Source of the DNA: Escherichia phage PE3-1
DNA length: 39,093 nucleotides
Direction: 5' to 3' (one strand)
Sequence record: KJ748011
Shown here: positions 2,191 through 39,052 of the stretch, one piece after another
Layout: the number at the start of each line of letters is the position of its first letter
How positions within the stretch are numbered: the first letter of the stretch is position 1
Translations under genes and position numbers: made by a program
Notes under the pieces: model-generated
The model's input: only the letters and a program-made list of their open reading frames with translations
What the model was told of the DNA's origin: nothing
Databases searched by the model: none

Positions 2191-2278
2191 CTATGAGTAT
2201 TGGACATTGGGTATGCTTATCTCCGGTCATCTTTCTGATAGCTTGGGGGATATACGACTGTATTAAACGGAAATCGCT

Positions 2279-2476: not shown

Positions 2477-2868
2477 TGAATATGTCAAATCTGGTACACG
2501 CACTGGATCAAATCACAGCGCTACGCGCCTTCACCGATAAGAACGGCGTAGAGTGGAAGTACGTCGGCACGGACTCTCGTGGTCGCAACTACTGGGAGGA
2601 GACCGGGAACAAGACTGCTTATGTGCATCGCCACTCGTCACACACCGCACGTCAACAGCAGGAGCGGGACCGTGTACTACAGGCACGACTCCGGGCCGAG
2701 GGCCATAAGTCCGAGCTGATGTGTCTGGCGTATGGTGGACGACCGATCACCGACGATGGTAAACTTCTGGTCTCAGGCTGGAAGGCGATAGACCAACGGT
2801 CAACCATCAAGCACACGACTCATGGTGACTTCAGTCATCTTCACGCTAACCCACTGATATGCAAGTGA
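2476..2868 (+). CDS. Hypothetical early protein (130 aa), no recognisable family
   Basis: GGGAG RBS upstream; occupies the region where T7 encodes 0.5-0.7, but no kinase motifs seen. Confidence 0.6.
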   Translation: MNMSNLVHALDQITALRAFTDKNGVEWKYVGTDSRGRNYWEETGNKTAYVHRHSSHTARQQQERDRVLQARLRAEGHKSELMCLAYGGRPITDDGKLLVSGWKAIDQRSTIKHTTHGDFSHLHANPLICK

Positions 2869-2874
2869 TTCTGA

Positions 2875-2896
2875 CTTAACTATCACTATAGGACTC
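2875..2896 (+). promoter_or_regulatory. Phage RNAP promoter CTTAACTATCACTATAGGAC upstream of gene 1
   Basis: Matches the 11-copy intragenomic consensus; expected TSS at the GG after TATA. Confidence 0.75.
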
Positions 2897-2965
2897 AAGG
2901 TCTAAGACTCCAAGTGAAAGACCAAAGAGACTTTAAGTGAAAGACTAATAACAAGGACTTTAAGT

Positions 2966-5647
2966 ATGAGCGTCATCTCCATTGACAAACACGACTTCTC
3001 TGACGTGTCGAACGCAATTGAGCCGTTTAACCTGCTGGCCGACCACTACGGGCAGGACCTTGCAGTAAAACAGCTTCAGCTTGAGCATGAGGCATACACT
3101 GAAGGCGAGCGACGTTTCATCAAGAACCTTGAGCGCCAGACAGAGCGCGGGGAACTGGCAGACAATCAGGTCGCCAAACCTTTGATGCAGACTCTGGTCC
3201 CTAAGATTGCGCAAGCCGTCAAGGAGTGGCATGAAGGCCCAGACGGGAAGCTGTCAACCTCTCGTCCTAGCGTAGCGTTCACCATGTTGAGCACTGAAGA
3301 GAAGGCCGTAAAGGACCGCTCTCTGCGCATCTCCTGTGAGTCTGCTGCGGTCATCATACTGAAGGTCATCCTCTCCAAGCTGGTCAAGCCTGAAGGTATC
3401 CCGATTACACCGATGGCCTCCGCGATAGGCCGTACACTTGAGGATGAAATCCGCTTCGGTCGCATTCGTGACAAGGAGCAGGAGCACTTCAAGAAGGCGA
3501 TAGCTGAGAACCTGAACAAGCGAGCCGGGGCATCCTATAAGAAAGCCTACATGCAAGCGGTTGAGACCTCCATGCTGGAGCAAGGTCAACTGGAAGATGC
3601 GTGGGGTACTTGGAGTCCGACCGAAGCGGTACACGTTGGCATCAAGATGCTTGAGATTGTCATCCAGTCTACACAACTGGTTGAGCTTAAGCGTTACGGT
3701 GCTGGCAATGCAGCGACTGATGTTGAGATGGTCCACCTGTCAGACTTCTGGGTAAAGAAGATGGCACAACGTGGATTCAGCCTTGCGGGTATTGCGCCAG
3801 TCTATCAGCCTTGCGTCGTTCCACCTAAGCCGTGGACGGGTGTCGTAGGTGGTGGGTACTGGGCCAAAGGTCGCAGACCATTACCACTGATTCGCTTAGG
3901 GTCTAAGTCTGCGGTAGCACGTTACGAAGACGTGTATATGCCTGAAGTCTACGAGGCAGTAAACATCATCCAGAATACACCTTGGAAAGTGAACAAGAAG
4001 GTGCTGGACGTGGTGAACATGGTAGAGAAGCTGAACAATACGCCTATTGATGACATCCCTCAGATGGAACCACTGAAGCCTGAGGACTATGCGGGTGAGA
4101 CCGAGGAGGAACTCAAGGCATGGAAGAAGGCTGCTGCTGGCATCTATCGCCGCGAGAAGGCCAGACAGTCACGCAGATTGTCACTGAGCTTTATCGTCAA
4201 CCAAGCGAATAAGTTCTCTCAGTTCAAGGCCATCTGGTTCCCATACAACATGGACTGGCGCGGTCGCGTCTACGCTGTGCCGATGTTCAACCCTCAGGGT
4301 AACGACATGCAGAAGGGTCTCCTGACTCTGGCAGTCGGTAAGCCTATTGGTGCTGATGGTTTCAAATGGCTGAAGGTCCATGGTGCAAACTGTGCGGGTG
4401 TCGATAAAGTCACCTTCGAGGAGCGCATCAAGTGGGTGGAAGACAACCACGACAACATCATGGCTGCTGCCAAAGCCCCGATGGATAGCATTGAGTGGTG
4501 GGGCAGGTTAGACTCTCCGTTCTGCTTCCTTGCGTTCTGCTTCGAGTATGCTGGCGTAATGCACCACGGCCTGTCTTACTCCTGCTCGCTACCGATAGCG
4601 TTCGATGGGTCCTGCTCTGGGATTCAGCACTTCAGCGCGATGCTTCGTGACCACATCGGTGGACATGCAGTAAACCTGACGCCATCCGGTAAGGTCCAAG
4701 ACATCTACCGCATCGTGTCCGACCGCATTGAGGAGGAGCTTAAAGTCCTGCTGGTTAACGGTACGGACAACGAGATGGTAACTCACGAGGACAAGAAAAC
4801 TGGTGAGATTACCGAACGTCTCAAGCTGGGGACACGAGAGCTGGCCCGTCAGTGGCTGACCTACGGTATGTCACGCAAGGTCACTAAGCGTTCGGTCATG
4901 ACTCTGGCCTACGGGTCGAAAGAGTATGGCTTCGCAGACCAAGTTTACGAGGATATCGTGATGCCAGCGATTGATTCAGGGTCTGGCGCTATGTTCACTG
5001 AACCAAGCCAAGCGTCTCGCTTCATGGCTAAGATGATTTGGGAAGCTGTGAGTGTGACCGTAGTTGCTGCGGTTGACGCGATGAAGTGGCTGCAAGGTGC
5101 TGCCAAGCTGCTGGCTGCTGAGGTGAAGGACAAGAAGACTGGTGAAACCCTGAAGCCTTGCCTTCCGGTACACTGGGTCACACCTGATGGTTTCCCTGTC
5201 TGGCAGGAATACCGCAAGAAGGATACTACTCGTCTGAACCTTATGTTCCTAGGGTCATTCAACCTTCAGCCTACAGTCAACAAAGGCACTAAGAAGGAGC
5301 TGGACAAGCACAAGCAGGAGTCAGGCATTAGCCCGAATTTCGTCCACTCGCAAGATGGTAGCCACCTCCGCAAGACTGTAGTCCACACGCACCGCAAGTA
5401 TGGCGTGATGTCATTCGCAGTGATTCACGATAGCTTTGGGACCATCCCGGCTGACGCTGAATATCTGTTCCGTGGCGTCCGTGAGACGATGGTTGAGACC
5501 TACCGAGACAACGATGTGCTGCTTGACTTCTACGAGCAGTTTGAATACCAGCTACATGAGAGTCAGCGCGACAAGCTGCCTGAGCTTCCGAAGAAAGGTA
5601 AACTGAATATCGAAGACATCTTGTCTTCAGACTTTGCATTCGCTTAA
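2966..5647 (+). CDS. 1: Single-subunit DNA-dependent RNA polymerase (T7 gp1 family)
   Basis: 893 aa, collinear with T7 RNAP along its length (e.g. FPYNMDWRGRVYAV, LPLAFDGSCSGIQHFSAMLRD, FALIHDSFGT, C-terminal SDFAFA). Confidence 0.98.
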   Translation: MSVISIDKHDFSDVSNAIEPFNLLADHYGQDLAVKQLQLEHEAYTEGERRFIKNLERQTERGELADNQVAKPLMQTLVPKIAQAVKEWHEGPDGKLSTSRPSVAFTMLSTEEKAVKDRSLRISCESAAVIILKVILSKLVKPEGIPITPMASAIGRTLEDEIRFGRIRDKEQEHFKKAIAENLNKRAGASYKKAYMQAVETSMLEQGQLEDAWGTWSPTEAVHVGIKMLEIVIQSTQLVELKRYGAGNAATDVEMVHLSDFWVKKMAQRGFSLAGIAPVYQPCVVPPKPWTGVVGGGYWAKGRRPLPLIRLGSKSAVARYEDVYMPEVYEAVNIIQNTPWKVNKKVLDVVNMVEKLNNTPIDDIPQMEPLKPEDYAGETEEELKAWKKAAAGIYRREKARQSRRLSLSFIVNQANKFSQFKAIWFPYNMDWRGRVYAVPMFNPQGNDMQKGLLTLAVGKPIGADGFKWLKVHGANCAGVDKVTFEERIKWVEDNHDNIMAAAKAPMDSIEWWGRLDSPFCFLAFCFEYAGVMHHGLSYSCSLPIAFDGSCSGIQHFSAMLRDHIGGHAVNLTPSGKVQDIYRIVSDRIEEELKVLLVNGTDNEMVTHEDKKTGEITERLKLGTRELARQWLTYGMSRKVTKRSVMTLAYGSKEYGFADQVYEDIVMPAIDSGSGAMFTEPSQASRFMAKMIWEAVSVTVVAAVDAMKWLQGAAKLLAAEVKDKKTGETLKPCLPVHWVTPDGFPVWQEYRKKDTTRLNLMFLGSFNLQPTVNKGTKKELDKHKQESGISPNFVHSQDGSHLRKTVVHTHRKYGVMSFAVIHDSFGTIPADAEYLFRGVRETMVETYRDNDVLLDFYEQFEYQLHESQRDKLPELPKKGKLNIEDILSSDFAFA

Positions 5648-5659
5648 CAGGAGAGAGTT

Positions 5660-5875
5660 ATGAAATTTGCACACAAGCAGGCTGGCGTTAATGGTGGGAC
5701 TCAAATCGTGACCGTAACAGAACACAACGGCAAGGGTCTGGTGAAGACCACGGTCATCCCTACCGAGCTGTCAAAACAGCTTAACGTACCATTCAAGACC
5801 CTCGTCCATCTTGTGGAATCCAACCACGAGAAGTACCTGAAAGACGCAGTGTCTAAGCTGGAGCAGACCAAATGA
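5660..5875 (+). CDS. Hypothetical protein (71 aa) between RNAP and the 1.1 promoter
   Basis: ORF with AGGAGAG RBS; no T7 counterpart recognised at this position. Confidence 0.5.
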   Translation: MKFAHKQAGVNGGTQIVTVTEHNGKGLVKTTVIPTELSKQLNVPFKTLVHLVESNHEKYLKDAVSKLEQTK

Positions 5876-5950
5876 CAGACCTACAGTTACTGGCCTTGTG
5901 GCTAGGAGCACTAGCAGTATTCACTTTAATCCAACGCAGAAGAGGTTAGC

Positions 5951-5972
5951 CTAAACTATCACTATAGGATTA
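5951..5972 (+). promoter_or_regulatory. Phage RNAP promoter CTAAACTATCACTATAGGAT (phi1.1 position)
   Basis: Consensus match; the T7 primary replication origin lies at the corresponding place. Confidence 0.8.
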
Positions 5973-6012
5973 GACTCAAGGTCATGACTCAAAGTCGTGG
6001 CCTTCATGATTA
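5971..6012 (+). promoter_or_regulatory. RNase III processing hairpin (R1.1-like)
   Basis: TAGACTCAAGGTCAT..(11 nt)..GTGGCCTTCATGATTA; AAGGUCA pairs with UGGCCUU; near-identical to recalled T7 R1.1 and to two other copies in this window. Confidence 0.7.
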
Positions 6013-6043
6013 ACCCTATAACCTAAATAACTGGAGCTACAAC

Positions 6044-6223
6044 ATGTATCAGAACACTATCAACTTAGAGCGCATCCGTGAACGTCAGCAGACTGAAGAT
6101 TACATTCCGAAGGGCCGCAAGCTGAACAAGACCAAGCGTGGCGGTGGTGTCAAGGGTGCTTTCCGTAACGCTGAAGGTAAAGACTCTCTGGTAAACCAAG
6201 AGAAGTATTCCGTAGGAGCGTAA
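6044..6223 (+). CDS. 1.1: gp1.1-like small basic protein (59 aa)
   Basis: KGRKLNKTKR motif as in T7 gp1.1; under 60 aa so absent from ORF track. Confidence 0.7.
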   Translation: MYQNTINLERIRERQQTEDYIPKGRKLNKTKRGGGVKGAFRNAEGKDSLVNQEKYSVGA

Positions 6224-6225
6224 AC

Positions 6226-6513
6226 ATGGGCATGTTCTCAAGAGCGCATAGCGGCAACCTGAACACTCTGCGTACAGCCATCAACAACTGGCAGACCGAG
6301 ACGGACTACAATGCAGATGTCAGCACTTGGTTTGACCCGGTGATGAACAGAACTTGTATCAAAGCGGTAATAGCCCACGTTCACACACGAGAGGTGCTCA
6401 TCGAGAAGGACTTCACGGAGTACCCGAATATCCGCGACGCAGATGTGCAGACCATTGTGATCGCCACTTGGTTCAATAAACAGTTCAACGACTACACTGG
6501 TCGATTCCTTTAA
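6226..6513 (+). CDS. 1.2: gp1.2-like protein (host dGTPase inhibitor family)
   Basis: 95 aa; N-terminal SGNL and overall resemblance to T7 gp1.2; AGGAG RBS; correct synteny. Confidence 0.7.
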   Translation: MGMFSRAHSGNLNTLRTAINNWQTETDYNADVSTWFDPVMNRTCIKAVIAHVHTREVLIEKDFTEYPNIRDADVQTIVIATWFNKQFNDYTGRFL

Positions 6514-6530
6514 TTCTGGAGACATTAACG

Positions 6531-7553
6531 ATGACAACTATCAAAACCAACCCGCACCGCGCTGTAGATTACTCTGAGTCAGGCGTTACGAAAGCACTGG
6601 CAGTAGCAGGGTCGCTGGAAGCTGAAGTGAAGTATGACGGTGTGCGGTTGAACCTTCCGGTGCTGCGAGAGGGTGAGACTTATTGGTTAAGCCGTGAGTC
6701 TAAACCACTACCAGCACTTGAGTGGATGAACTCTGAGTTAGGCAATGCGTGGACTCAGGCTGACTGGAGGTGGTTCCTTCGTCAAGCTGGCTATGAAGGT
6801 ATCGGCCTAATGATTGATGGCGAGGTCATGGTCAAAGGTGTTGACTTTAATACGTCCTCAGGTCTCATTCGAACCAAGTGGCTCAAGCCTAACAACGAGG
6901 AGTTCGCTGAATGCTATTCGGGCCGTGGCAAGAAGGTCCCGTTCTGGGTCGCCCGGTCACGACTTAAGGTTGTGGTTTACGGTATTGTCGACATGACAAC
7001 CATTGCTGACCCGAAAGCAGAAGGTCCTATCCACAGCGTCACACGCCTGAAGGCCGAAGCTATCGTCCCTCTCCTCCAGAAATACTTCCCGGAAATCGAC
7101 TGGGTTCTGTCTGAGTCGCACACGGTCTATGACCTTGAGTCGCTCAACTCCCTGTACGAACAGAAGCGTCTGGAAGGACACGAGGGTCTGGTAGTCAAGG
7201 ACCCGCTGGGTAAATACAAGCGTGGCAAGAAGTCAGGCATGTGGAAAATGAAGCCAAGCGAAGAGGCAGATGGTCACGTTGTTCGTCCGGTGTGGGGAAC
7301 GGAAGGTTTAGCCAACGAAGGTCTGGTCATTGGGTTTGACGTTATGCTTGAGAACGGGATGGAGGTCTCCGCAACTAACATTAGTCGCGCCCTTATGTCC
7401 GAGTTCACAGAGAACGTCAAGTCAGACCCAGATTACTACAAAGGGTGGGCCTGTCAGATTACCTACATGGAGGAGACACCAGATGGAAGTTTGCGACATC
7501 CGTCATTCGACCAGTGGCGAGGGACTGAGGACAATCCTACAGTCAAGATTTAA
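6531..7553 (+). CDS. 1.3: ATP-dependent DNA ligase
   Basis: 340 aa; adenylation motif KYDGVR (Lys in EVKYDG); synteny with T7 gene 1.3. Confidence 0.95.
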   Translation: MTTIKTNPHRAVDYSESGVTKALAVAGSLEAEVKYDGVRLNLPVLREGETYWLSRESKPLPALEWMNSELGNAWTQADWRWFLRQAGYEGIGLMIDGEVMVKGVDFNTSSGLIRTKWLKPNNEEFAECYSGRGKKVPFWVARSRLKVVVYGIVDMTTIADPKAEGPIHSVTRLKAEAIVPLLQKYFPEIDWVLSESHTVYDLESLNSLYEQKRLEGHEGLVVKDPLGKYKRGKKSGMWKMKPSEEADGHVVRPVWGTEGLANEGLVIGFDVMLENGMEVSATNISRALMSEFTENVKSDPDYYKGWACQITYMEETPDGSLRHPSFDQWRGTEDNPTVKI

Positions 7554-7944
7554 GGTTGACCGGACGGCTCCTTCGGGAGTCTCCAACCTGAAGGGTAAAC
7601 ACTTAGGTTATCGACGCAAGGACGGCTACTGGATTATAAACACAACCAAGGGTCAACTCCTTGCCCACCGGGTAGTCTGGGAGCTAACTCACGGTCCGAT
7701 ACCGGAAGGAATGGTTATTGACCATATAAACAGAGACCCTTCTGATAACCGCATTGAGAACCTAAGGTGTGTGACTCAGGCAGTGAACCTGACGAACGTC
7801 GCCGTCCGTAGCCACTGCAAGTCTGGCGAGAAGTATATTAACTTTGAGCCAAGGACTGGTCGCTGGCAACTGAGGATAAAGCGTAAGTCATACGGTACGT
7901 TCGCTACCATAGCCGAGGCGGTAGCCTTAAGAGATTCATTATAA
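7483..7944 (+). CDS. HNH homing endonuclease with C-terminal AP2-type DNA-binding domain
   Basis: HRVVWELTHGPIPEGMVIDHINRDPSDNRIENLR plus AP2-like GRWQLRIKRKSYGTFATIAEAVALR; start at ATG 7483 with GGAGGAG RBS, overlapping the ligase 3' end by 71 nt (track ORF 7330 extends upstream in the same frame). Confidence 0.85.
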   Translation: MEVCDIRHSTSGEGLRTILQSRFKVDRTAPSGVSNLKGKHLGYRRKDGYWIINTTKGQLLAHRVVWELTHGPIPEGMVIDHINRDPSDNRIENLRCVTQAVNLTNVAVRSHCKSGEKYINFEPRTGRWQLRIKRKSYGTFATIAEAVALRDSL

Positions 7945-7950
7945 CGTCAA

Positions 7951-7983
7951 CCCAGTGGTCTTCGGACTGCTGGGTTTCTTTGC
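7951..7983 (+). terminator. Intrinsic terminator (TE-like): 10-bp stem with UUCG tetraloop followed by TTTCTTT
   Basis: CCCAGTGGTC-TTCG-GACTGCTGGG then T-rich tract, directly after the early/ligase block. Confidence 0.7.
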
Positions 7984-8022
7984 TTATGCTAGAAAGCTAT
8001 CGTCTGGGCCACCAGCTAGACC

Positions 8023-8044
8023 CTAAGCTATCACTATAGGACAC
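8023..8044 (+). promoter_or_regulatory. Phage RNAP promoter CTAAGCTATCACTATAGGAC
   Basis: Consensus match with one upstream substitution. Confidence 0.75.
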
Positions 8045-8070
8045 CCATAACTTCGACCTAAGGAGACTCT

Positions 8071-8331
8071 ATGTCTAAGAACTTAATGTTCAATCGTTAT
8101 TCCAATACCTTCCACCTGTCCAACAACCCGTTCGCTTGCATTAAGCGCAACGAGAAGCTGTGCTACTTCGGGAAGGCCGTTAAGCTGGCACCTACAGTCT
8201 TCGCTCTGATTACTCCGGGTAAAGCTGAAGAGGCTCGCCAGAAGCGTGAGACCGACGTACCTGTGGTCTACACAAAGTGGCCACGCGTCCGTCTGTTCGT
8301 TGAGTTCGTGAAGGAGGTGGTTAATGCTTAA
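8071..8331 (+). CDS. gp1.6-position hypothetical protein (86 aa)
   Basis: ORF with AAGGAG RBS immediately after a promoter; assignment by synteny only. Confidence 0.6.
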   Translation: MSKNLMFNRYSNTFHLSNNPFACIKRNEKLCYFGKAVKLAPTVFALITPGKAEEARQKRETDVPVVYTKWPRVRLFVEFVKEVVNA

Positions 8332-8764
8332 CCGTACACCAACTGTTGTCAAAGAACTTTTGGCACTTAACGTTGACGTAAGAGACGAAGCTAGCTGCGG
8401 TAATGGGGTGAGCTGCAAGGGACTATCATGTGACCGATGCCCAATGGTCGGTAAGAGGACAGGTACTGGCGAGTACAAGACCCTTCGTGACTTACGGGCC
8501 TCTGTGGGAACGTGCAGTGAAGACGATGGCGTTCGCAAGCCATCTCACTATCAGGTCTTTGACGGCGTGGAATCCATTGAGATTATCGCACGGTCAATGA
8601 CTGTGAGTGAGTTCCGTGGGTTCTGCATGGGTAACGTCCTGAAGTATCGACTCCGGGCTGGTAAGAAGTCAGAGCTGGCAACTATGGAGAAGGACCTGAA
8701 CAAAGCGGCCTTCTATCAGGAGCTGTTCGACCTGCATAAAGGTAAGTGCTATGTTGCCGAGTGA
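8324..8764 (+). CDS. DUF3310-like protein with Cys-rich N-terminus
   Basis: 146 aa; C-terminal PSHY..G.E.IEII......F..GNVLKY..R.G.K matches my recollection of the DUF3310 signature; N-terminal CGNGVSCKGLSCDRCP; GGAGG RBS. Confidence 0.65.
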   Translation: MLNRTPTVVKELLALNVDVRDEASCGNGVSCKGLSCDRCPMVGKRTGTGEYKTLRDLRASVGTCSEDDGVRKPSHYQVFDGVESIEIIARSMTVSEFRGFCMGNVLKYRLRAGKKSELATMEKDLNKAAFYQELFDLHKGKCYVAE

Positions 8765-8777
8765 GTGGTGCCGGGAG

Positions 8778-8846
8778 ATGTATGAGAAGACTCTCAACCC
8801 GGACTACATTACACTATACAACCAATGGAAGGAGCGTGGTTTATGA
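8778..8846 (+). CDS. Very small ORF (22 aa) coupled to gene 2 by ATGA overlap
   Basis: Fills the gap between 8764 and gene 2; may correspond to a 1.8-like gene; too short to validate. Confidence 0.25.
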
Positions 8847-9001
8847 CTGAGGTTGAGAAGAAATACATCGTGGAGCTTGAGGGTCGAGTTCAGTCCTTCG
8901 AGGTTCCGGTGTACGCAAAGTCTCTTGAAGAGGCTACCCTGAAGTCCCAAGAGTATGAGGACGCTGGGTTTGTGGTAGGACGGATTCGTCCTGAGACTTA
9001 A
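8843..9001 (+). CDS. 2: gp2-like inhibitor of host RNA polymerase
   Basis: 52 aa; [25 protein letters not shown] parallels T7 gp2; GGAG RBS 8 nt upstream. Confidence 0.8.
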
Positions 9002-9019
9002 ACTATCACTGTAGGACAG
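8997..9019 (+). promoter_or_regulatory. Phage RNAP promoter variant CTTAAACTATCACTGTAGGAC (phi2.5 position)
   Basis: One substitution at -3 relative to consensus; directly upstream of SSB. Confidence 0.65.
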
Positions 9020-9058
9020 ACGTCCAGTTCGTAACTTTAAATTAGGAGATTTACACCA

Positions 9059-9754
9059 ATGGCTAAAGAGCAACTGAAGACTTTCACCACTCCGGTAGCT
9101 GGTATCGTTGAGCCTTACGCATGGCTGAACAAAGCAGACACCAAGTTCAACGAGCGTGGTGAACATAAAGTCAACCTGACATTCGACCTGAGCAACCCGA
9201 AGGTCCGTAAGATGATTGATGTCTTACAGAAGATTCACGACGATGCATATGCGAAAGCACTCGCAGACCACGAGAAGAACCCGCCTCAGGTTCAGCGTGG
9301 CAAGAAGCCTATTGAACCACGAGAAGGCGACATGCCGTGGATTGAGAATGGTGACGGTACTGTTACCCTGAAGTTTAAATGCTTCGCGTCTTACCTGAAA
9401 GACGGCAAGTCCGAGCCTATCGTATTACGGTTCTACGACACCGATGCTAAACTCATCCGTGACGTCCCGAATATTGGCTCAGGGTCTAAGCTGAAGGTCA
9501 AGTTTAAAGTCCTGCCGTTCAAGTGGAACGCTGCGACTGGTGCAAGCATTAAGCTCCAGCTTGAGTCCTGCCTTATGGTAGAACTGAAGGAGTGGAAAGG
9601 TGATGGTGCTGGTGGCGATGGTGGCTGGGGTGATGATGAAGACCTCGGTACTGGCTACAAAGCGCCAACCGATGGTGACTTCGGGTCTGATGACTTCGGC
9701 GACGATGGTTCCGAAGGTGGTGATGAAGATACTGCAGGAGACTACGACTTCTAA
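9059..9754 (+). CDS. 2.5: Single-stranded DNA-binding protein (gp2.5)
   Basis: 231 aa; AEPYA, RGKKP..P.EGDMP, NGDGT.T.KFKC.AS, GSKLKVK..PFKWN, acidic C-terminal tail ending in F, as in T7 gp2.5. Confidence 0.95.
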   Translation: MAKEQLKTFTTPVAGIVEPYAWLNKADTKFNERGEHKVNLTFDLSNPKVRKMIDVLQKIHDDAYAKALADHEKNPPQVQRGKKPIEPREGDMPWIENGDGTVTLKFKCFASYLKDGKSEPIVLRFYDTDAKLIRDVPNIGSGSKLKVKFKVLPFKWNAATGASIKLQLESCLMVELKEWKGDGAGGDGGWGDDEDLGTGYKAPTDGDFGSDDFGDDGSEGGDEDTAGDYDF

Positions 9755-10204
9755 ATGACGCTGAAAGAGAAACTGGAGGCTTACTCTAAGGTTTCTCCTT
9801 CGGGATGCTGGGAGTGGCAACGCTCCCGGACTAAAACTGGTTATGGTCAAATAGCTATAGGTCATCAGAAACAGGACTATTCTCACCGAGTTTCGTACAG
9901 GGAGTACAAAGGTCATATACCTGATGGATTGGTTGTTAGACATAAATGTGATAACCCTTGCTGCTGTAACCCTGAGCACCTTGAAGTTGGGACTCAGAAG
10001 GACAACATGCAGGACTGCGTGAAGCGGGGACGTCACTCGAAACCGCCAGTATTCGAAGGAGAAGCTAATCACAAGACTAAGCTGACCGAGGAAGACGTAG
10101 CGTTTATCCTGAAGTCCAAGCTGAGGCCTATAGAACTTGCTAAGATGTTTGGCGTTACTCCGCAAGCTATTAATTGGAGACGCAAGAATGGCAAGAACGA
10201 TTAG
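9755..10204 (+). CDS. HNH homing endonuclease
   Basis: 149 aa; GCWEW..GYG..HR.....G.IP.GLVVRHKCDNPCCCNPEHL..GTQKDN is a classic phage HNH signature; starts 1 nt after the SSB stop. Confidence 0.85.
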   Translation: MTLKEKLEAYSKVSPSGCWEWQRSRTKTGYGQIAIGHQKQDYSHRVSYREYKGHIPDGLVVRHKCDNPCCCNPEHLEVGTQKDNMQDCVKRGRHSKPPVFEGEANHKTKLTEEDVAFILKSKLRPIELAKMFGVTPQAINWRRKNGKND

Positions 10205-10637
10205 CCGAGGGCATCAAGTAGGAATATATAGGTCTGGACTAGAAGCAAAGAACCAAGAGTGGCTGGAGAAGAACGGAGTTAAGGCTGAGTACGAGATGTA
10301 TAGCATCAAGTACACAATACCAGAATCTCTTCACAGTTATTGTCCAGACTTTGTACTGCCCAACGGAATAATTGTGGAGACCAAAGGAATCTTCGCAGTG
10401 GAAGACCGCAAGAAGCACCTATTGATTAGAGAACAGCACCCAGAGTTAGACATTCGGTTCGTGTTCTCAAGTTCCCGCTCCAAGTTATACAAAGGGTCTC
10501 CGACCACGTATGGCGCATGGTGCGAAAAGAACGGCTTTAAGTTTGCCGACAAGTTTATCCCGGTTGAGTGGCTGAGAGAGGCGACTGTACGTCTGCCTTC
10601 TGGTATACTCATCCCCAAGAAGAAAGGAGTTAAGTGA
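10188..10637 (+). CDS. 3: Endonuclease I (Holliday junction resolvase, gp3)
   Basis: RSGLE, PDFVLPNGIIVETKG, RKKHLLIREQHPELDIRFVFSSSRSKLYKGSPTTYG..CEKNGFKFADK match T7 gp3; start moved to ATG 10188 (GGAG RBS), track ORF 10137 in same frame. Confidence 0.92.
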   Translation: MARTISRGHQVGIYRSGLEAKNQEWLEKNGVKAEYEMYSIKYTIPESLHSYCPDFVLPNGIIVETKGIFAVEDRKKHLLIREQHPELDIRFVFSSSRSKLYKGSPTTYGAWCEKNGFKFADKFIPVEWLREATVRLPSGILIPKKKGVK

Positions 10638-11107
10638 TGACTCAGAAATATAGACTTAAGACTGGATTCAACGGGTGGCCAGCAGGCACTATCGTTACGA
10701 AATGTTCGAAAGACCCTGTACCATCACCTGTAATGACTCTGGTGGAATCCTCCGAGAGGGGAATCTACAAACACGGAGCGGAAGGTTATAACACTCAGCC
10801 TGACGGTATGTGGGGAGCGTGGGTTATAAATAATCAGCTTGAGGAAATCTTAGAGGATAAACCGCAAGTCCTGCCAGCCTCAAGTGTCCCTCCTGTCACA
10901 GTTAAACGTGAAGTCCTGACCATCAACAAGATCGGTGTAGGTCAGACGTTCATCGTCCACGGTAAGCCTGACGAAGTGTACGTGAAGATTAGCAACTCTC
11001 ACGTCTTCAACCATAAGTTGCTCCAGATGCACACGACTGACGCACAGCGCTTCCAACGTCATCTGAACCTCGTAGCTGTAGAGCTGGTGGTGTACGATGG
11101 TGAGTAA
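10634..11107 (+). CDS. Hypothetical protein (157 aa) inserted between endonuclease I and lysozyme
   Basis: Clean ORF with AAAGGAG RBS and ATGA coupling to gene 3; no T7 counterpart at this position. Confidence 0.65.
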   Translation: MMTQKYRLKTGFNGWPAGTIVTKCSKDPVPSPVMTLVESSERGIYKHGAEGYNTQPDGMWGAWVINNQLEEILEDKPQVLPASSVPPVTVKREVLTINKIGVGQTFIVHGKPDEVYVKISNSHVFNHKLLQMHTTDAQRFQRHLNLVAVELVVYDGE

Positions 11108-11555
11108 GGTTCAGTTCAACCCACGGTCACGGACTGACGCTATCTTCGTTCACTGTTCGGCTACCAAGCCAGATATGGACATCGGGGTAGAGACAATCCG
11201 TATGTGGCACAAGCAGCAAGGCTGGCTGGACGTAGGCTACCACTTCGTCATCAAGCGTGATGGCACTGTGGAAGAAGGCCGCCCGGTCAATGTCGTAGGG
11301 TCACACGTTAAGGACTGGAACTCCCGGTCCGTAGGCGTCTGCCTTGTAGGTGGGATCAACGCTAATGGCAAGTTTGAAGCTAACTTCACTCCAGCCCAGA
11401 TGGACTCCCTGCGCATCAAGCTGGATGACCTGAAGGTCCTGTATCCTCAGGCAGAAATCAAAGCACACCATGACGTAGCACCTAAGGCCTGTCCAAGTTT
11501 TGACTTGCAACGCTGGTTGACTACCAACGAACTGGTCACTTCCGACCGTGGTTAA
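11097..11555 (+). CDS. 3.5: Lysozyme / N-acetylmuramoyl-L-alanine amidase (gp3.5)
   Basis: 152 aa; VQF..R..TDAIFVHCSATKP, WLDVGYHF.IKRDGTVE.GR, HH.VAPKACPSFDL.RW...NELVTSDRG match T7 lysozyme. Confidence 0.96.
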   Translation: MVSKVQFNPRSRTDAIFVHCSATKPDMDIGVETIRMWHKQQGWLDVGYHFVIKRDGTVEEGRPVNVVGSHVKDWNSRSVGVCLVGGINANGKFEANFTPAQMDSLRIKLDDLKVLYPQAEIKAHHDVAPKACPSFDLQRWLTTNELVTSDRG

Positions 11556-11579
11556 TAAACTCTAAAGGAGAACAACTTA

Positions 11580-11795
11580 ATGATTAAACTTATTGAATTT
11601 CTAGGTCGTCTGGTGGTGCGTGGTTATCGTCGTGCTGCGGTTCTGGAACGAAAGGTAGAAAAGAAGACTGCTGATGATGCGGCTGATGCTGCTGCTCTGG
11701 CTGACAAGCTGACCATCGCATCACTGGAAGCTGGCATGAAGGCTCGTCAGGCTGATACCAAAGCTAACCAGTTGGCTCAGTTCTTCAAAGACTAA
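11580..11795 (+). CDS. Hypothetical protein (71 aa), Ala/Lys-rich, predicted helical
   Basis: ORF with AAAGGAG RBS immediately after lysozyme. Confidence 0.55.
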   Translation: MIKLIEFLGRLVVRGYRRAAVLERKVEKKTADDAADAAALADKLTIASLEAGMKARQADTKANQLAQFFKD

Positions 11796-11813
11796 ACTAT
11801 CACCTTAGGGATG
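11792..11813 (+). promoter_or_regulatory. Phage RNAP promoter variant CTAAACTATCACCTTAGGGAT (phi3.8 position)
   Basis: Two substitutions in the -5 to -3 region; probably weak. Confidence 0.5.
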
Positions 11814-11863
11814 GGACCATGAGTCCTGTCCCTTTGTTCGCATTTATGATTAAGGAGTGACCA

Positions 11864-13692
<1,829 letters not shown>

Positions 13693-13734
13693 GCGTGATA
13701 TAGCTGATTATAAGAATTTTATGGAGGACCGTTA

Positions 13735-13899
13735 GTGTTAAAGAAACTTAAAGCTCGCTACCATCGGTTCATGTACAAATGGTGGAGTGATGAAGCAACA
13801 TGCCTGTCCAACATTCTGGGAGACCAAAGGTTCGACTCTAAGGCATGGAAGAAAGCTAACCGGAAGTTTATGTATCACTTCTTGCGTACAGACTTCTAG
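13735..13899 (+). CDS. Small hypothetical protein (54 aa, GTG start; alternative ATG 13771)
   Basis: GGAGG RBS 8 nt upstream of GTG; fills the gap between gene 4 and the RNase III site. Confidence 0.35.
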   Translation: MLKKLKARYHRFMYKWWSDEATCLSNILGDQRFDSKAWKKANRKFMYHFLRTDF

Positions 13900-16433: not shown

Positions 16434-16639
16434 GTGAATACTTACGGGTCCTAGCGGCCCTTAAGTCCTGCCCGAAGACCTTCCAGTCCAACTATGTGCG
16501 CAACAACGCTGCACTTGTGGCTGAGGCTGCGAGTCGTGGACATCTGAGCTGCCTGTCTACGGATGGGCGTAACAATGGTGCGTGGGAGATTACCGCTGAA
16601 GGCGTTAAGTTCCTGAACCAACACGGAGGCTGTCTGTGA
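16430..16639 (+). CDS. 5.7: gp5.7-like protein
   Basis: 69 aa; LKSCPKTFQSNYVRNNAALVAEAASRGHLSCL..GRNNGAWEITA almost identical in pattern to T7 gp5.7. Confidence 0.9.
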   Translation: MSEYLRVLAALKSCPKTFQSNYVRNNAALVAEAASRGHLSCLSTDGRNNGAWEITAEGVKFLNQHGGCL

Positions 16640-17502
16640 GTGAAAAGAAAATAGCTCTTGTGTTAGATGGTGACTATCTGGTCTTCTCTTCTATGGCTGC
16701 TGCCGAGGACGAGACAGACTGGGGTGATGACATCTGGACCCTTATCTGCGACCATGAGAAGGCTCGTCGTATCCTTGAGAACACCATCGCTGAAATCGTT
16801 AAGAAGCGTAAGGCGTGGAAAGACGCTAAGATTGTGATGTGCTTTACTGATGATAACAACTGGCGTAAGGATGTTCTACCTACCTATAAGGCCAACCGTA
16901 AAGGTTCTCGCAAGCCTGTAGGTTACAAGAAGTTCGTAGCCGAAGTGATGGCTGACCCACGGTTCAACAGCTTCCTGCGTCCTACGCTTGAGGGTGATGA
17001 CTGTATGGGCATCATCGGTACCCGACCTCAGATTGTTGGGTGCGATCATGCGGTGCTGGTGTCCTGTGATAAGGACTTCAAGACCATCCCGAACTGTGAG
17101 TTCTTCTGGTTAACAACTGGTGAAATCCTGAGTCATACGACTGCTGAGGCAGACTACTGGCACATGGAGCAGACCATCAAGGGTGACACTACAGATGGCT
17201 ACGGAGGTATTCCGGGGATGGGTGAGGATACCACTCGTGCGTTCCTTGACGAGCCGTACTACTTCGTGCAGGAGAGCCGTGAGCTTAAGACTGGTAAGAA
17301 CAAAGGCCAGATTAAGACTGAGTGGAAGAAGTATCCGAAGCGTGAAGACATGACGCTGTGGGACTGCATGGTTACACTGGCTGCTAAGGCTGGCATGACC
17401 GAGGAGGAACTTCTGGTCCAAGCTCAGGTCGCTCGTATTTGTCGAGCCTCCGACTACGACCCTAAGTCCAAGGAGGTCATCCTGTGGACACCATCCATGT
17501 AA
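16636..17502 (+). CDS. 6: 5'-3' exonuclease (gp6)
   Basis: 288 aa; LVLDGDYLVF, CDHEKARRILE, PVGY, LEGDDCMGII, SCDKDFKTIPNC, TIKGDTTDGY match T7 gp6; GTG start with GGAGG RBS. Confidence 0.96.
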   Translation: MSEKKIALVLDGDYLVFSSMAAAEDETDWGDDIWTLICDHEKARRILENTIAEIVKKRKAWKDAKIVMCFTDDNNWRKDVLPTYKANRKGSRKPVGYKKFVAEVMADPRFNSFLRPTLEGDDCMGIIGTRPQIVGCDHAVLVSCDKDFKTIPNCEFFWLTTGEILSHTTAEADYWHMEQTIKGDTTDGYGGIPGMGEDTTRAFLDEPYYFVQESRELKTGKNKGQIKTEWKKYPKREDMTLWDCMVTLAAKAGMTEEELLVQAQVARICRASDYDPKSKEVILWTPSM

Positions 17503-17576
17503 TCTACTGGGCCGGACTTCTGGCCCTTTACTGCATGTACAAGTGGTTCGGGTCGAACAACCGTCCTAAACACTGA
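17484..17576 (+). CDS. Small hydrophobic ORF (30 aa, GTG start) overlapping the end of gene 6; possible gp6.3 analogue
   Basis: AGGAGG 7 nt upstream of GTG; hydrophobic core IYWAGLLALYCMYKWF; too short to validate. Confidence 0.3.
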   Translation: MDTIHVIYWAGLLALYCMYKWFGSNNRPKH

Positions 17577-18228: not shown

Positions 18229-18633
18229 ATGCTACCATATCTCAACTCACGCGAAGGTCGCCATATGTGCGCTTGTCGCCTCTGGGAAGACGGGCAGTCT
18301 AACTTCAAGTCATTCGAGGACTTCAAGGCTCATACTTACCGTATGGCTGACGAGTTCGACGGTGAAGAGTACACAATCTACGATGTCTCAGGTCAACCAG
18401 TAGCGTACCTCTACATGCTGGCTACCGCATCTTGGCACCGACCGACTCCCGGTCTTGACCTTTCAATCGTCGCTATTCGTCGTGACTCGCAGTCCTCCCG
18501 CAAGGTTCTTGAGACTGTCAGGCACATCATAGACGAAGAGTGCAAGCGTTGGGGTCTTGGCTGGTATTCTCGTGTCAAGCATGTTTCTGGGTCGGTAGAC
18601 ATCGTAACAACTAAGGAGATTAATCGTGGGTAA
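18229..18633 (+). CDS. 7: gp7-position protein (134 aa)
   Basis: Size and synteny with T7 gene 7; weak RBS. Confidence 0.7.
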   Translation: MLPYLNSREGRHMCACRLWEDGQSNFKSFEDFKAHTYRMADEFDGEEYTIYDVSGQPVAYLYMLATASWHRPTPGLDLSIVAIRRDSQSSRKVLETVRHIIDEECKRWGLGWYSRVKHVSGSVDIVTTKEINRG

Positions 18634-18874
18634 ATCAATCAGTAAGGCTTTCAAGAAAGTGGTAAAAGGTGCGTTAGGGACCGTTGGTCTTGGAGCTGAT
18701 GATGCACCTAAAGTTGTTGAGGCTCAGACCCCAGCTGCACCAGTAGAAGTGCCGAACGACAAAGTGGAAGATGTGGATACTGAAGTGACTGCATCTGACG
18801 AGAAGAAAGTTAAGCGAACTGGTAAGCGTGGACTTCAGGTCTCTCGTACCTCTGGTGGCGGTATTTCTATTTAA
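18626..18874 (+). CDS. 7.3: gp7.3-like virion/tail protein
   Basis: 82 aa; N-terminal MGKS..KAFKKV and C-terminal SRTSGGGISI parallel T7 gp7.3; GTG start with AAGGAG RBS. Confidence 0.85.
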   Translation: MGKSISKAFKKVVKGALGTVGLGADDAPKVVEAQTPAAPVEVPNDKVEDVDTEVTASDEKKVKRTGKRGLQVSRTSGGGISI

Positions 18875-36286: not shown

Positions 36287-36736
36287 ATGCTCGAATTTTT
36301 AAAGAGAGCGGCTCCGTGGTTACTTGCAGCAGTGATGTTTGCTGGTGGCTACCACACCGCTAACAATAAGTGGGAGGCTAAGGTCAATGCAGAATACACC
36401 TCGAATCTTAAGGCATCGGAAGATACAAGGCTTGCTGTCCAAGCTGAAGTCAACAAAGTGTCCAAACGGTTTCAGGACGAAATGTCCTCGCTGGAAGGCA
36501 GCACTGATAGGATTATTGCTGACCTTCAGTCTGACAATAAGCGGCTGCGCATCCGAGTCAAACCTACGAGTGGAGCCACGCAAAGTGACGGTCGATGCAT
36601 CGTTGATGGTTACGCCGAACTTGACGAACGAGATGCTAAACGTCTTATCGCCATCGGAGTGAAAGGAGACAAGTGGATTAAGGCCCTTCAGGACACTGTG
36701 AGAGCCTTGCAGCAAGATAAGGAGGTGACGCATTGA
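36287..36736 (+). CDS. 18.5: Rz-like i-spanin (gp18.5)
   Basis: 149 aa; MLEFL, N-terminal TM segment, [42 protein letters not shown] match T7 gp18.5. Confidence 0.93.
36387..36662 (+). CDS. 18.7: Rz1-like o-spanin lipoprotein embedded in the +1 frame of Rz (gp18.7)
   Basis: Lipobox LTISGC after a hydrophobic stretch, Pro-containing short mature region; ATG 36387 is the only in-frame ATG upstream of the lipobox, about 100 nt into Rz; start uncertain. Confidence 0.6.
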   Translation: MQNTPRILRHRKIQGLLSKLKSTKCPNGFRTKCPRWKAALIGLLLTFSLTISGCASESNLRVEPRKVTVDASLMVTPNLTNEMLNVLSPSE

Positions 36737-38493
36737 GTAAAGACTTAGTGGCGCGTCAGGCGCTAATGACAGCACGTATGAAGGCAGACTTCGTGTTCTT
36801 CCTGTTCGTATTATGGAAAGCTCTGTCACTCCCAGTCCCGACTCGCTGTCAGATTGACATGGCGAAGAAACTATCGGCTGGGGACAACAGGCGTTTCATC
36901 CTACAGGCGTTCCGTGGTATCGGGAAGTCCTTCATTACGTGTGCATTCGTGGTCTGGAAACTATGGAACAACCCAGACTTGAAGTTCATGATTGTGTCTG
37001 CCTCAAAAGAACGAGCCGATGCTAACTCCATATTCATCAAGCGAATCATCGACCTCATGCCTCAGCTTCAGGAACTCAAACCTAAGCAGGGACAGCGAGA
37101 TGCGGTTATTAGCTTCGACGTTGGGCCAGCCAAGCCAGACCACTCACCTTCGGTTAAGTCTGTTGGTATCACTGGTCAGTTGACTGGTAGTCGTGCTGAC
37201 ATCCTGATTGCCGATGACGTAGAGGTTCCGAACAACTCAGCGACTCAGGCCGCACGAGACCGTCTGTCAGAGCTTGTGAAAGAGTTCGACGCTATCCTGA
37301 AGCCGGGAGGTACAATCATCTATCTGGGTACTCCTCAGAACGAGATGACCCTGTATCGTGAGCTGGAAGGTCGTGGGTATACCACTACTATCTGGCCCGC
37401 TCGTTATCCACGCGATAAGAATGACTGGCAGTCTTACGGCGACCGTCTGGCTCCTATGCTTCAGGCAGAGCTGGAAGAGGACCCTGAGTCATTCTACTGG
37501 CGTCCGACCGACGAAGTACGCTTCGATGATACGGACCTGAAGGAACGTGAGCTGTCATATGGCAAGGCTGGCTTCGCTCTACAGTTCATGCTTAACCCGA
37601 ACCTGAGTGATGCTGAGAAGTACCCTCTAAAGCTCCGTGACCTTATCGTAGCCGACTTGGACCCAGCGTCCAGCCCAATGGTCTACCAATGGTTGCCAAA
37701 CCCTCAGAACAAGCGTGAGGACGTTCCTAACGTTGGACTCATGGGTGATTCATACCACACGTATCAGACTGTAGGTTCTGCCTTCAGCTCGTACACCCAG
37801 AAGATTCTGGTCATTGACCCTAGTGGTCGTGGTAAGGATGAAACTGGCTATGCGGTACTGTACCAGCTAAACGGCTACATCTTCGCTATGGAAGTTGGTG
37901 GCATGCGTGGTGGTTATGAAGACTCTACGCTGGAAGCCTTGGCTAAGATTGGTCGTAAGTGGAAGGTCAACGAATACGTCATTGAGGGTAACTTCGGTGA
38001 TGGCATGTACCTTGAGCTATTCAAGCCTGTAGCGGCCCGTATCCATCCTGCGGCTGTAACTGAAGTGAAGAGTAAGGGTCAGAAAGAACTCCGCATCTGT
38101 GACGTTCTGGAGCCTATCATGGGGTCTCACCGACTTATCGTTAACGCTGCTGCTATCGTCCAAGACTACCAGTCAGCCTCTGATAAGGATGGTGTTCGTA
38201 ACCCTATCTACTCTCTCTTCTATCAGATGACCCGTATCTCTCGTGAACGTGGAGCCTTGGCACACGATGACCGACTTGATGCGCTGGCTATCGGTGTACA
38301 GTTCTTCGTTGAGTCTATGGCTAAGGATGCCAACAAAGGCGAACGTGAAGTCACTGAGGAGTGGCTGGAGGAACAGATGGAGAACCCACGGAAAGGCTTC
38401 GAGTCCATCCACACTGAGTTCTGGGACAATGGGGTCCGGGTAACTCACGATATGGACGAGCTTGGACTAGGGTCATACGTTACGTTCCACTAA
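36733..38493 (+). CDS. 19: Terminase large subunit (gp19)
   Basis: Collinear with T7 gp19 ([80 protein letters not shown]); TTG start at 36733 with AAGGAGG RBS (alternative ATG 36766). Confidence 0.96.
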
Positions 38494-38509: not shown

Positions 38510-39052
38510 ATGAGTAAACAGAAGGCCATCGACAGGGTGGCCCTCTTTAATCACTATGCTTATGTAGATGGTGAGTTGGTGTGTAGGAAACCTTATAAAG
38601 GATCTCGCAAGAAGCCCGGTGAGGTAATGGGACATTCAGTTCATCCGTCTGGGTACGCAATCGTGAAGGTTCTTGGCAGTCGGTATAGACGTGCCAGAAT
38701 CATCTACAGCCTAGTCGTTGGTCGAATACCTTCTGGCATGATGGTTGACCATATCAATGGTGATAGACTTGATGACAGGCCGGATAACTACAGGTTAGTA
38801 ACAGCATTAGAGAACCGATGGAACTCAGGAGGTGGCGATACTAATGGTCTACCCAAAGGTATCAGCTTTTTCAAGCCTACCGGAAAGTATCGCGCTCAGT
38901 TGCGCCTAAAAGGTAAGTGCTTCACGAAGACCTCAGATTCCATAGAGGAACTAGAGGTGTGGCTTGATGCTTTACGCACTGAGAAGCACAAGGAATACGC
39001 AGTAAACCGACGGTCCCCTAAGCGTGATAGGACCCATAGAAACCACAAGTAA
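38510..39052 (+). CDS. HNH homing endonuclease with AP2-type DNA-binding domain (second HNH-AP2 copy)
   Basis: 180 aa; GMMVDHINGDRLDDRPDNYRLVTALEN plus AP2-like GKYRAQLRLKGKCFTKTSDSIEELEVWLDALR; strong GGAGGAGG RBS. Confidence 0.88.
   Translation: MSKQKAIDRVALFNHYAYVDGELVCRKPYKGSRKKPGEVMGHSVHPSGYAIVKVLGSRYRRARIIYSLVVGRIPSGMMVDHINGDRLDDRPDNYRLVTALENRWNSGGGDTNGLPKGISFFKPTGKYRAQLRLKGKCFTKTSDSIEELEVWLDALRTEKHKEYAVNRRSPKRDRTHRNHK

Follow-up and report, generated by a model that had tools for sequence, protein, structure and literature searches.

In Escherichia coli, 83% of the genes start with AUG, 14% with GUG and 3% with UUG (cited in Hecht et al., bioRxiv 10.1101/063800), and reporter assays have placed initiation at UUG and GUG at 10–100% of the AUG level. 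Bacteriophage T7 employs 51 ATG and 6 GTG start codons. Its gene 19 (NC_001604) begins with a near-cognate GTG at 37370, encodes a 586-aa protein and is preceded by a very strong Shine–Dalgarno (SD) sequence, TAAGGAGG (−12.1 kcal/mol). Among the K1F-like phages, the annotators of one paper took AUG, UUG and GUG as valid start codons. A literature search for experimental N-termini or initiation-site data on T7 or K1F-like phages, including JSS1 and any Kayfunavirus, found nothing relevant.

Here, we analyzed the 39,093-nt sequence of Escherichia phage PE3-1 (KJ748011), hereafter called the window. Its 48 genes start with 42 ATG, 5 GTG and 1 TTG codons, and this non-ATG share (6 of 48) lies inside the normal range, with no notable difference from T7 or E. 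coli. A preliminary description had proposed that genes 19, 4A, 6 and 7.3 start at non-ATG codons placed behind strong ribosome binding sites, and the codons and their SD motifs can be read from the sequence exactly where it had located them:

36718 to 36728, plus strand: SD of gene 19, TAAGGAGGTGA, read from the sequence as 11 nt complementary to the 3′ end of 16S rRNA.
36733 to 38493, plus strand: gene 19, large terminase subunit, 586 codons, TTG start.
11977 to 11985, plus strand: SD of gene 4A, GGGAGGAGG, 6-nt spacer.
11992 to 13692, plus strand: gene 4A, primase-helicase, 566 codons, GTG start.
16623 to 16629, plus strand: SD of gene 6, ACGGAGG, 6-nt spacer.
16636 to 17502, plus strand: gene 6, 5′–3′ exonuclease, 288 codons, GTG start overlapping the gene 5.7 stop (16637–16639) as GTGA.
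18612 to 18618, plus strand: SD of gene 7.3, TAAGGAG, 7-nt spacer.
18626 to 18874, plus strand: gene 7.3, virion assembly protein, 82 codons, GTG start, with a Pfam VirionAssem_T7 match.

GTG and TTG starts in these four essential genes of a K1F-like (Kayfunavirus) coliphage are real, ordinary and already known, being annotated in T7 and in most close relatives. We are confident that TTG 36733, GTG 11992, GTG 16636 and GTG 18626 are the initiation codons, that they are used through ordinary SD-led initiation and have differing origins, and that the ATG starts given for these genes in the JSS1 record reflect ATG-only calling. Initiation would follow the usual bacterial route, with fMet-tRNA at the near-cognate codon and a strong ribosome binding site belonging to each gene. 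To rank the SDs, the predicted SD:anti-SD duplex energy was calculated at all 1956 NTG codons on the plus strand of the window. The starts of genes 19, 4A, 6 and 7.3 reach −13.5, −12.8, −9.5 and −9.1 kcal/mol, corresponding to ranks 1, 5, 33 and 45, so that the gene 19 SD is the best of all 1956 contexts; an energy of −9 kcal/mol or better is found at just 2.4% of them. The spacers measure 6–7 nt, and each of the four codons is the first NTG past the upstream in-frame stop. SD placement at these starts exceeds chance.

The four genes could instead be translated from the first downstream ATG (taken as 36778 in the terminase, 12094 in the primase and 16693 in the exonuclease), the NTGs being sense or non-coding triplets. 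AUG is intrinsically the strongest start codon, and the terminase is annotated in this way in the JSS1 record (KX689784.2) and in the K1F RefSeq entry (NC_007456). However, these ATGs, as well as ATG 36766 in the terminase, are not preceded by an SD, with energies of −2.0 to −2.5 kcal/mol, close to the median, and they are missing in many relatives, whereas relatives place an ATG exactly at the GTG or TTG of the window. The JSS1 annotation itself weighs against this alternative, as all 45 of its CDS start with ATG, indicating that an ATG-only gene caller was used. As a consequence, its terminase is truncated by 15 residues, its primase-helicase by 34 (half of the zinc ribbon) and its exonuclease by 19 (including the DGD motif), while gene 7.3, gene 4.3 and the 6.3-like open reading frame (ORF) are omitted. 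We consider translation from the downstream ATGs extremely unlikely. The value of the finding lies mainly in curation, given that cloning or modelling based on the JSS1 record would take the wrong N-termini; biologically, the use of non-ATG codons represents the ordinary GTG/TTG case of a T7-like phage.

The comparison with relatives bears on each gene separately. In gene 4A, no NTG other than GTG 11992 separates ATG 12094 (codon 35) from the in-frame stop 5′ of it, and the N-terminus read from this GTG is Met-NFRDEDEESVFLYH. The resulting gp4A equals its T7 counterpart in length (566 aa), and its alignment with 1nui begins at residue 6. Only with this start do C18, C21, C37 and C40 all align with the zinc-ribbon cysteines of T7 1nui, completing the T7 gp4-type primase zinc ribbon (CxxC ... 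CxxC); C18 and C21 lie 5′ of ATG 12094, and a start there would drop half of it. Met35 is lacking in many relatives. In the relatives the gene starts 9–11 codons ahead of SVFLYH, with ATG in 21 close relatives and GTG in L098 and L099, the GTG of L099 being shifted inwards by two codons.

For gene 6, reading from GTG 16636 gives Met-SEKKIALVLDGDYLVF as the N-terminus. The conserved LDGD motif (residues 10–13) lies 5′ of the first ATG, at codon 20 (16693), and would be removed by a start at this ATG. The start codon is ATG in 22 close relatives and GTG in three (L087, L104 and L137). As K1F, L089, L093 and L099 carry ATG at this position in a context near-identical to that of the window, the gene 6 GTG would be a point variant of a sister-phage ATG. 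For gene 7.3, the ORF contains no in-frame ATG, so that gp7.3 would be nonexistent under ATG-only initiation. Its N-terminus reads xGK, comparable to MGK in T7 gp7.3, and its start codon in the close relatives is GTG in 22, ATG in two and TTG in one. The GTG of gene 7.3, like the TTG of gene 19, is found throughout the lineage.

Non-ATG initiation at the four codons is thus strongly supported by the sequence, through SD strength, the interchange of ATG, GTG and TTG among relatives, the alignment with T7 N-termini and the loss of motifs, or of the whole of gene 7.3, under ATG-only starts. What is shown here are sequence features and comparative patterns; that ribosomes use these codons, and that the weak ones might tune expression, is inferred from them. 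Pfam domain boundaries were uninformative for placing the N-termini, as the profiles start deep inside the proteins, with the exception of VirionAssem_T7.

The gene 19 product is a predicted T7-type large terminase, full-length and colinear with its solved homologues. It has 586 aa, equal to T7 gp19, and matches the 586-aa chain 8dgc_E (7.5e-247; residues 1–582 on 1–583, residue 1 to residue 1), 4bij (T7 DNA maturase B) and Pfam Terminase-T7_RNaseH-like (6e-38). The N-terminus read from TTG 36733 is fMet/Met-SKDLVAR, and T7 gp19 shares its xS(T/K) pattern. The AAGGAGG core of the SD ends 7 nt 5′ of TTG 36733–36735 and is kept in 15 of 17 close relatives, ST37 having AAGGAGA and K1F GAAGGAGG. 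Each of the 17 close Kayfunavirus relatives examined has TTG at the homologous start position; L005 and L007 have ATG there, and T7 has GTG. The TTG is already annotated in 10 of 12 sampled Kayfunavirus records, including those of K1F (AM084414) and Peacock (MK903279), whose sequences here are near-identical to the window. Codons 2–11 are weakly conserved, with about five synonymous changes (including CGT to AGA) against 5–9 amino-acid changes; this comparison is suggestive of coding constraint, although the sequences are few and too similar.

In contrast to genes 4A, 6 and 7.3, the argument from truncation fails for gene 19. ATGs 36766 and 36778 (codons 12 and 16) both lie 5′ of the conserved terminase core, so a shorter terminase would probably be functional. 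Dual initiation might therefore be envisaged, with the TTG yielding the full-length protein and one or both of these ATGs an isoform 11–15 residues shorter, by analogy with 4A and 4B. Both ATGs are in frame and are kept among close Kayfunavirus sequences, and a weak TTG could leave some ribosomes to start downstream. Nevertheless, neither ATG has an SD, and the sequence bears no internal ribosome binding site mark, unlike the conserved CAGGAGGT ahead of the 4B start. Met12 and Met16 are missing in many relatives and are not conserved beyond the genus, and T7 gp19 has no Met before residue 43. On this evidence a second terminase start seems very unlikely, and initiation at TTG 36733 remains our preferred reading.

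The preliminary description had also stated that each of the four start codons overlaps the preceding stop codon, and had suggested coupled translation. The overlap is seen at two of them: gene 6, where it forms GTGA, and gene 19, where it involves the upstream gene:

36287 to 36736, plus strand: gene 18.5, Rz-like i-spanin, whose TGA stop (36734–36736) overlaps the TTG as TTGA.

Gene 7.3 overlaps its upstream gene by 8 nt, but its start (18626–18628) and the stop (18631–18633) have no base in common. Gene 4 shows no overlap: 196 nt separate it from the last intact gene before it, which ends at 11795, and a 36-codon remnant ORF stops at 11972–11974, 17 nt upstream. Across the genome, overlapping junctions are found at 5 of 6 non-ATG starts against 11 of 41 ATG starts (Fisher p = 0.013, in a tiny sample), an enrichment that fits the idea of coupling without proving it.

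If coupling were obligate, the non-ATG starts would be used mainly by ribosomes that have just terminated on 18.5, 5.7 or the gene preceding 7.3 and then re-initiate, and expression of core genes would depend on translation of their upstream neighbours. The TTGA and GTGA junctions, the 8-nt overlap at gene 7.3 and the enrichment described above agree with this proposal, as does L016, in which a different upstream ORF likewise ends as TTGA on the terminase start. On the other hand, gene 4A has no overlapping neighbour, and in T7 the gene 19 GTG lies 19 nt past the 18.5 stop, in contrast to the TTGA overlap of the window. RNA structure was rejected as a coupling device: when 81-nt segments around six starts were folded and compared with shuffled sequences, none was more stable (z-scores −0.74 to +1.45), and conservation is lacking for an 8-bp hairpin that covers the TTG, as a TTA-to-CTA change breaks it in Peacock and L022. 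Moreover, overlapping junctions are common among the ATG genes as well, and each of the four starts is served by a separate strong SD, which would allow independent ribosome loading. Coupled translation is only a possibility, with the overlap present at genes 19 and 6, nearly so at gene 7.3 and absent at gene 4A; obligate coupling appears unlikely.

It is conceivable, though doubtful, that the weak TTG of the large terminase is not neutral but actively preserved in order to throttle expression. The TTG is invariant in 18 Kayfunavirus sequences spanning at least four spacer haplotypes, and its T forms the third base of a His, Pro or Arg codon of gene 18.5 in the relatives. In three contexts this codon encodes Pro (CCT) or Arg (CGT) and is fourfold degenerate, so a change to ATG would be free of cost to the upstream gene, yet no ATG is seen there. 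The explanation that the overlapping gene dictates the T was accordingly rejected for the Pro and Arg contexts. T7 has GTG in this gene. Among the Autographiviridae that were sampled, a non-ATG codon opens 11 of 26 distinct terminase N-termini with a strong SD; the corresponding figure is 8 of 74 when genes 4, 6 and 7.3 are considered (Fisher p = 0.001, uncorrected for phylogeny). Compensation of codon strength by SD strength was also considered and rejected, as ATG terminases with equally strong SDs occur in L015, L017 and L021. If the throttle is real, placing the genome's strongest SD before the weakest of the canonical start codons could hold the terminase low relative to the small subunit, possibly in an IF3-sensitive manner.

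The start of gene 4A appears to have a different history. In T7, the HNH gene 3.8 lies directly 5′ of gene 4 and its 3′ end holds the ribosome binding site and first codons of 4A; the window is arranged likewise. According to one paper, K1F-like Citrobacter phages also carry a gp3.8-like HNH gene 5′ of gene 4. The corresponding feature of the window is as follows:

11864 to 12014, plus strand: decayed HNH homing-endonuclease gene (T7 gene 3.8-like), with a 36-codon head ORF at 11864–11974 and a tail in another frame at about 11946–12014.

The N-terminal fragment resembles T7 gp3.8 (E = 3e-9), and L099 carries at this site an HNH_3 gene of full length (121 aa; Pfam, 2.7e-18); the window fragment 11864–11971 gave no Pfam match to an intact HNH_3 domain. 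The window copy is a deletion remnant. An internal deletion of roughly 240 nt accompanied by a frameshift, as estimated from the reduction of a 121-codon gene to about 151 nt, has left the 36-codon head and a tail of roughly 22 codons, and the C-terminal fragment contains both the SD and the GTG of gene 4A. Moreover, the region in which gene 4 starts in K1F and Peacock is matched by ATG 11864 and the SD in front of it. The GTG and SD of gene 4A most probably came with an HNH homing-endonuclease gene, which entered at the ancestral ATG of gene 4 and decayed afterwards. The HNH gene and 4A share 26 nt in T7, and the remnant and 4A share 23 nt in the window. In T7, 4A starts with ATG, whereas the window has a GTG there and a broken copy of the HNH gene; in K1F and Peacock, both 4A and 6 start with ATG instead of the GTG of the window. 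Gene 4 offers a tidy example of a homing-endonuclease insertion swapping the ribosome binding site and start codon of an essential downstream gene.

Three further non-ATG starts were absent from the list of the preliminary description: the candidate start of 4B, gene 4.3 and a 6.3-like ORF:

12187 to 13692, plus strand: candidate gene 4B, helicase-only form, starting at an internal GTG (12187), with SD AGGAGGT at 12171–12177 and a 10-nt spacer.
13735 to 13899, plus strand: gene 4.3, 54 codons, GTG start at 13735, preceded by GGAGG at 13723–13727.
17484 to 17576, plus strand: 6.3-like ORF (position of T7 gene 6.3), 30 codons, GTG start at 17484, with SD AAGGAGGT at 17470–17477 (−12.1 kcal/mol, rank 8).

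The candidate 4B SD has an energy of −11.6 kcal/mol, and this GTG and SD are retained in 23 of 23 relatives. The GTG lies one position past the residue aligned with T7 Met64. In T7, the 4B ATG (Met64) is preceded by the same CAGGAGGT as the candidate, encoding Ser-Gly-Gly at the same place of both proteins; the candidate differs in being a GTG one codon 3′ of the T7 start, with the 10-nt spacer. K1F AM084414 annotates an ATG at codon 51 instead, and TTG 12148 (−8.7 kcal/mol) is an alternative candidate in the window. The gene 4.3 start codon is GTG in 11 relatives and ATG in three. Both gene 7.3 and gene 4.3 are called at GTG in K1F AM084414 and Peacock, as in the window, and neither record annotates the 6.3-like ORF. 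This ORF has no Pfam match, and homology to T7 gene 6.3 is accordingly not established. It is intact in the relatives, with GTG or ATG as its start codon. Its first 19 nt lie within the 3′ end of gene 6; T7 gene 6.3 also overlaps gene 6 in this way and likewise has a GTG start.

The four start codons lie in the sequence where the preliminary description had placed them, each preceded by its Shine-Dalgarno (SD) motif:

36733, + strand: TTG start of gene 19 (large terminase); SD TAAGGAGGTGA at 36718-28, complementary over 11 nt to the 3' end of 16S rRNA; spacer of 7 nt after AAGGAGG
11992, + strand: GTG start of gene 4A (primase-helicase); SD GGGAGGAGG at 11977-85; spacer of 6 nt
16636, + strand: GTG start of gene 6 (exonuclease); SD ACGGAGG at 16623-29; spacer of 6 nt
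18626, + strand: GTG start of gene 7.3 (virion assembly protein); SD TAAGGAG at 18612-18; spacer of 7 nt

All ATG, GTG and TTG codons of the + strand (n = 1956) were scored by pairing the region from -20 to -4 with ACCUCCUUA. The start of gene 19 ranks 1st (-13.5 kcal/mol), followed by those of 4A (5th, -12.8 kcal/mol), gene 6 (33rd, -9.5 kcal/mol) and gene 7.3 (45th, -9.1 kcal/mol), while only 2.4% of these codons attain -9 kcal/mol. The rival ATGs at 36766, 36778, 12094 and 16693 score -2.0 to -2.5 kcal/mol, about the median. At all four sites, no other NTG comes between the preceding in-frame stop and the start codon. This pattern is not due to chance. SD strength, the start codons of relatives, the T7 N-termini and the positions of conserved motifs all support non-ATG initiation at these four core genes, a reading that is almost certainly right.

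IMG/VR supplied 80 loci for the terminase and 79 centred on the exonuclease, and the comparison set was completed by T7, K1F, Peacock and another eight Kayfunavirus records. Read from the TTG, the terminase has 586 aa, as does T7 gp19, and its residue 1 aligns with residue 1 of the 586-aa chain 8dgc_E. Met12 and Met16 were not found outside the genus, and in T7 gp19 the first Met after the start comes no earlier than residue 43. T7 gene 19 starts at the homologous position (T7 37370) with TAAGGAGG upstream, albeit with GTG rather than the TTG of the window. The terminase is annotated from the TTG in 10 of the 12 sampled Kayfunavirus records (K1F AM084414, Peacock, SD6, LM33_P1, TM1, Vec13, MopsHU1, 216Ecol046PP, vB_EcoP_F and ST37), and from an ATG in K1F NC_007456 (the equivalent of 36766) and JSS1 (36778).

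The homologous position is TTG in 17/17 close relatives, and ATG in two loci, L005 and L007, where the product opens MSKK. Across 18 sequences, the TTG never changed to ATG, and it is kept even where its T is the fourfold-degenerate third base of the last codon of the upstream gene (CCT/CGT). Across the sampled lineages, non-ATG starts make up 11/26 at gene 19 versus 8/74 at genes 4, 6 and 7.3, in counts uncorrected for phylogeny. The sequences thus far hint that the TTG may be selected to throttle the terminase. One relative, L016, carries a 53-codon ORF (1343-1504) inserted between gene 18.5, which encodes an Rz-like i-spanin, and gene 19; its start overlaps 18.5 as ATGA and its stop overlaps the terminase TTG as TTGA, so that the SD and TTG are retained as a unit with another upstream neighbour.

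The gene 6 position, in near-identical context, is ATG in K1F and three loci (L089, L093, L099) and GTG in the window and three others (L087, L104, L137), a difference that is synonymous in gene 5.7 (CTA to CTG, Leu). The conserved LDGD motif of the exonuclease lies upstream of the first ATG, codon 20. Gene 7.3 starts with GTG in 22 close relatives, ATG in 2 and TTG in 1, and GKSISKAFKK follows the start codon in every one of these products. T7 gp7.3 opens MGK, and the window product likewise continues GK; the 7.3 ORF of the window contains no in-frame ATG.

The gene 4 start has a different history. In 21 close relatives, 4A has an ATG about 9-11 codons before SVFLYH; GTG occurs at that position in L098 and two codons further in in L099. 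The zinc-ribbon residues C18 and C21, which align with T7 primase (1nui), are both encoded upstream of ATG 12094 (codon 35). Gene 4 of K1F, Peacock and most relatives begins at gattaaggagtgaccaATG, whose SD and ATG are also present in the window (ATG 11864). There they open a 36-codon ORF instead, which matches T7 gp3.8 (E = 3e-9) and is the head of an HNH homing endonuclease:

11864-12014, + strand: decayed HNH gene (T7 gene 3.8-like) at the ancestral gene 4 start

At the same site, L099 has an intact 121-aa HNH_3 gene (1021-1386). The HNH tail persists in a different frame (about 11946-12014), and its codons provide GGAGGAGG and the GTG of 4A. T7 has the same arrangement, gene 3.8 overlapping the 4A start by 26 nt. 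A homing-endonuclease insertion thus replaced the gene 4 start codon, after which the HNH gene decayed. Further HNH homing-endonuclease ORFs, annotated in the JSS1 record, are dispersed at window 7330-7944, 9755-10204 and 38510-39052, consistent with such traffic at gene 4.

In other Kayfunavirus contigs, the junction just before gene 4 holds different insertions: a tRNA-Thr(CGT) in L104 (1273-1351), and a 60-codon ORF (MVTVILVLTLISGSG...) in L092 (about 740-945) and L086 (about 480-680). The latter insert is flanked by duplicated taaggagtgaccaATG, of which L104 retains only a partial left-hand copy (gattaag). The junction looks like an insertion hotspot that may act by duplication of the RBS sequence.

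For 4B, the helicase-only form, the candidate start is GTG 12187, preceded by CAGGAGGT as used for 4B in T7 (spacer 10 nt), kept in 23/23 relatives and one codon past the position that corresponds to T7 Met64 in the alignment; another candidate is TTG 12148. K1F AM084414 annotates 4B from ATG codon 51 (window 12142 equivalent), with a GGAG-to-ATG gap of just 2-3 nt.

Each start had also been said to overlap the preceding stop, suggesting coupled translation. The overlap holds for gene 19 (TTGA; 18.5 stop 36734-36) and gene 6 (GTGA; 5.7 stop 16637-39), but not for the other two. Gene 7.3 and its upstream gene overlap by 8 nt, without a base common to the start and stop codons. Ahead of gene 4, the closest gene that is still intact stops at 11795, a lack of overlap that the HNH insertion explains. 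Of 47 junctions in the window, 16 overlap, including 5/6 at non-ATG starts versus 11/41 at ATG starts (Fisher p = 0.013; small sample), an enrichment that fits weak codons being tolerated near terminating ribosomes. Three results speak against obligate translational coupling of the non-ATG starts: a strong SD stands before every one of them, folding of 81-nt segments around six starts gave no RNA structure that would sequester the start, and T7 gene 19 has no upstream overlap. Coupling is plausible but not required.

Besides the 4B candidate, two further GTG starts had been missed:

13735-13899, + strand: gene 4.3, GTG 13735 (GTG in 11 relatives, ATG in 3)
17484-17576, + strand: 30-codon ORF, GTG 17484, SD -12.1 kcal/mol, overlapping the gene 6 end

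The 30-codon ORF, which is hydrophobic (VDTIHVIYWAGLLALYCMYKWFGSNNRPKH), is kept in the close Kayfunavirus relatives examined, with GTG or ATG at its start, and is unannotated in the JSS1, K1F and Peacock records. T7 gene 6.3 resembles it in position and GTG start, a likeness by which homology is not established.

The 48 genes of the window use 42 ATG, 5 GTG and 1 TTG, and T7 uses 51 ATG and 6 GTG (2.8, 6.3, 7.7, 17.5, 19, 19.2). In E. coli, 83% of starts are AUG, 14% GUG and 3% UUG (as cited in Hecht et al., bioRxiv 10.1101/063800), and in reporters GUG/UUG initiation reaches 10-100% of AUG (bioRxiv 10.1101/063800). Overall start-codon usage in the window is normal, and its GTG/TTG starts are ordinary, such starts being on record already for T7 and K1F.

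The practical use of these results is a corrected annotation of JSS1. Positions 36287-38493 are 100% identical to Escherichia phage JSS1 KX689784.2 (megablast), classified in Autographiviridae, Studiervirinae, Kayfunavirus, with K1F, LM33_P1, Vec13 and Peacock among its near relatives. The window, with the usual T7-like gene order on its + strand, corresponds to that record in reverse complement (window position about 39835 minus record position in the regions used here). ATG is the first codon in 45/45 CDS of the record, and terminase, primase and exonuclease are consequently shortened and genes 7.3 and 4.3 absent. Its DNA polymerase begins at ATG 13936; the SD-backed start common to K1F and Peacock is ATG 13963. 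The 39093-nt window is offset by about 811 nt from the reverse complement of the 39024-nt record, and the offset changes by one base somewhere within window ~1811 to 12094, which suggests another permutation or version of the genome.
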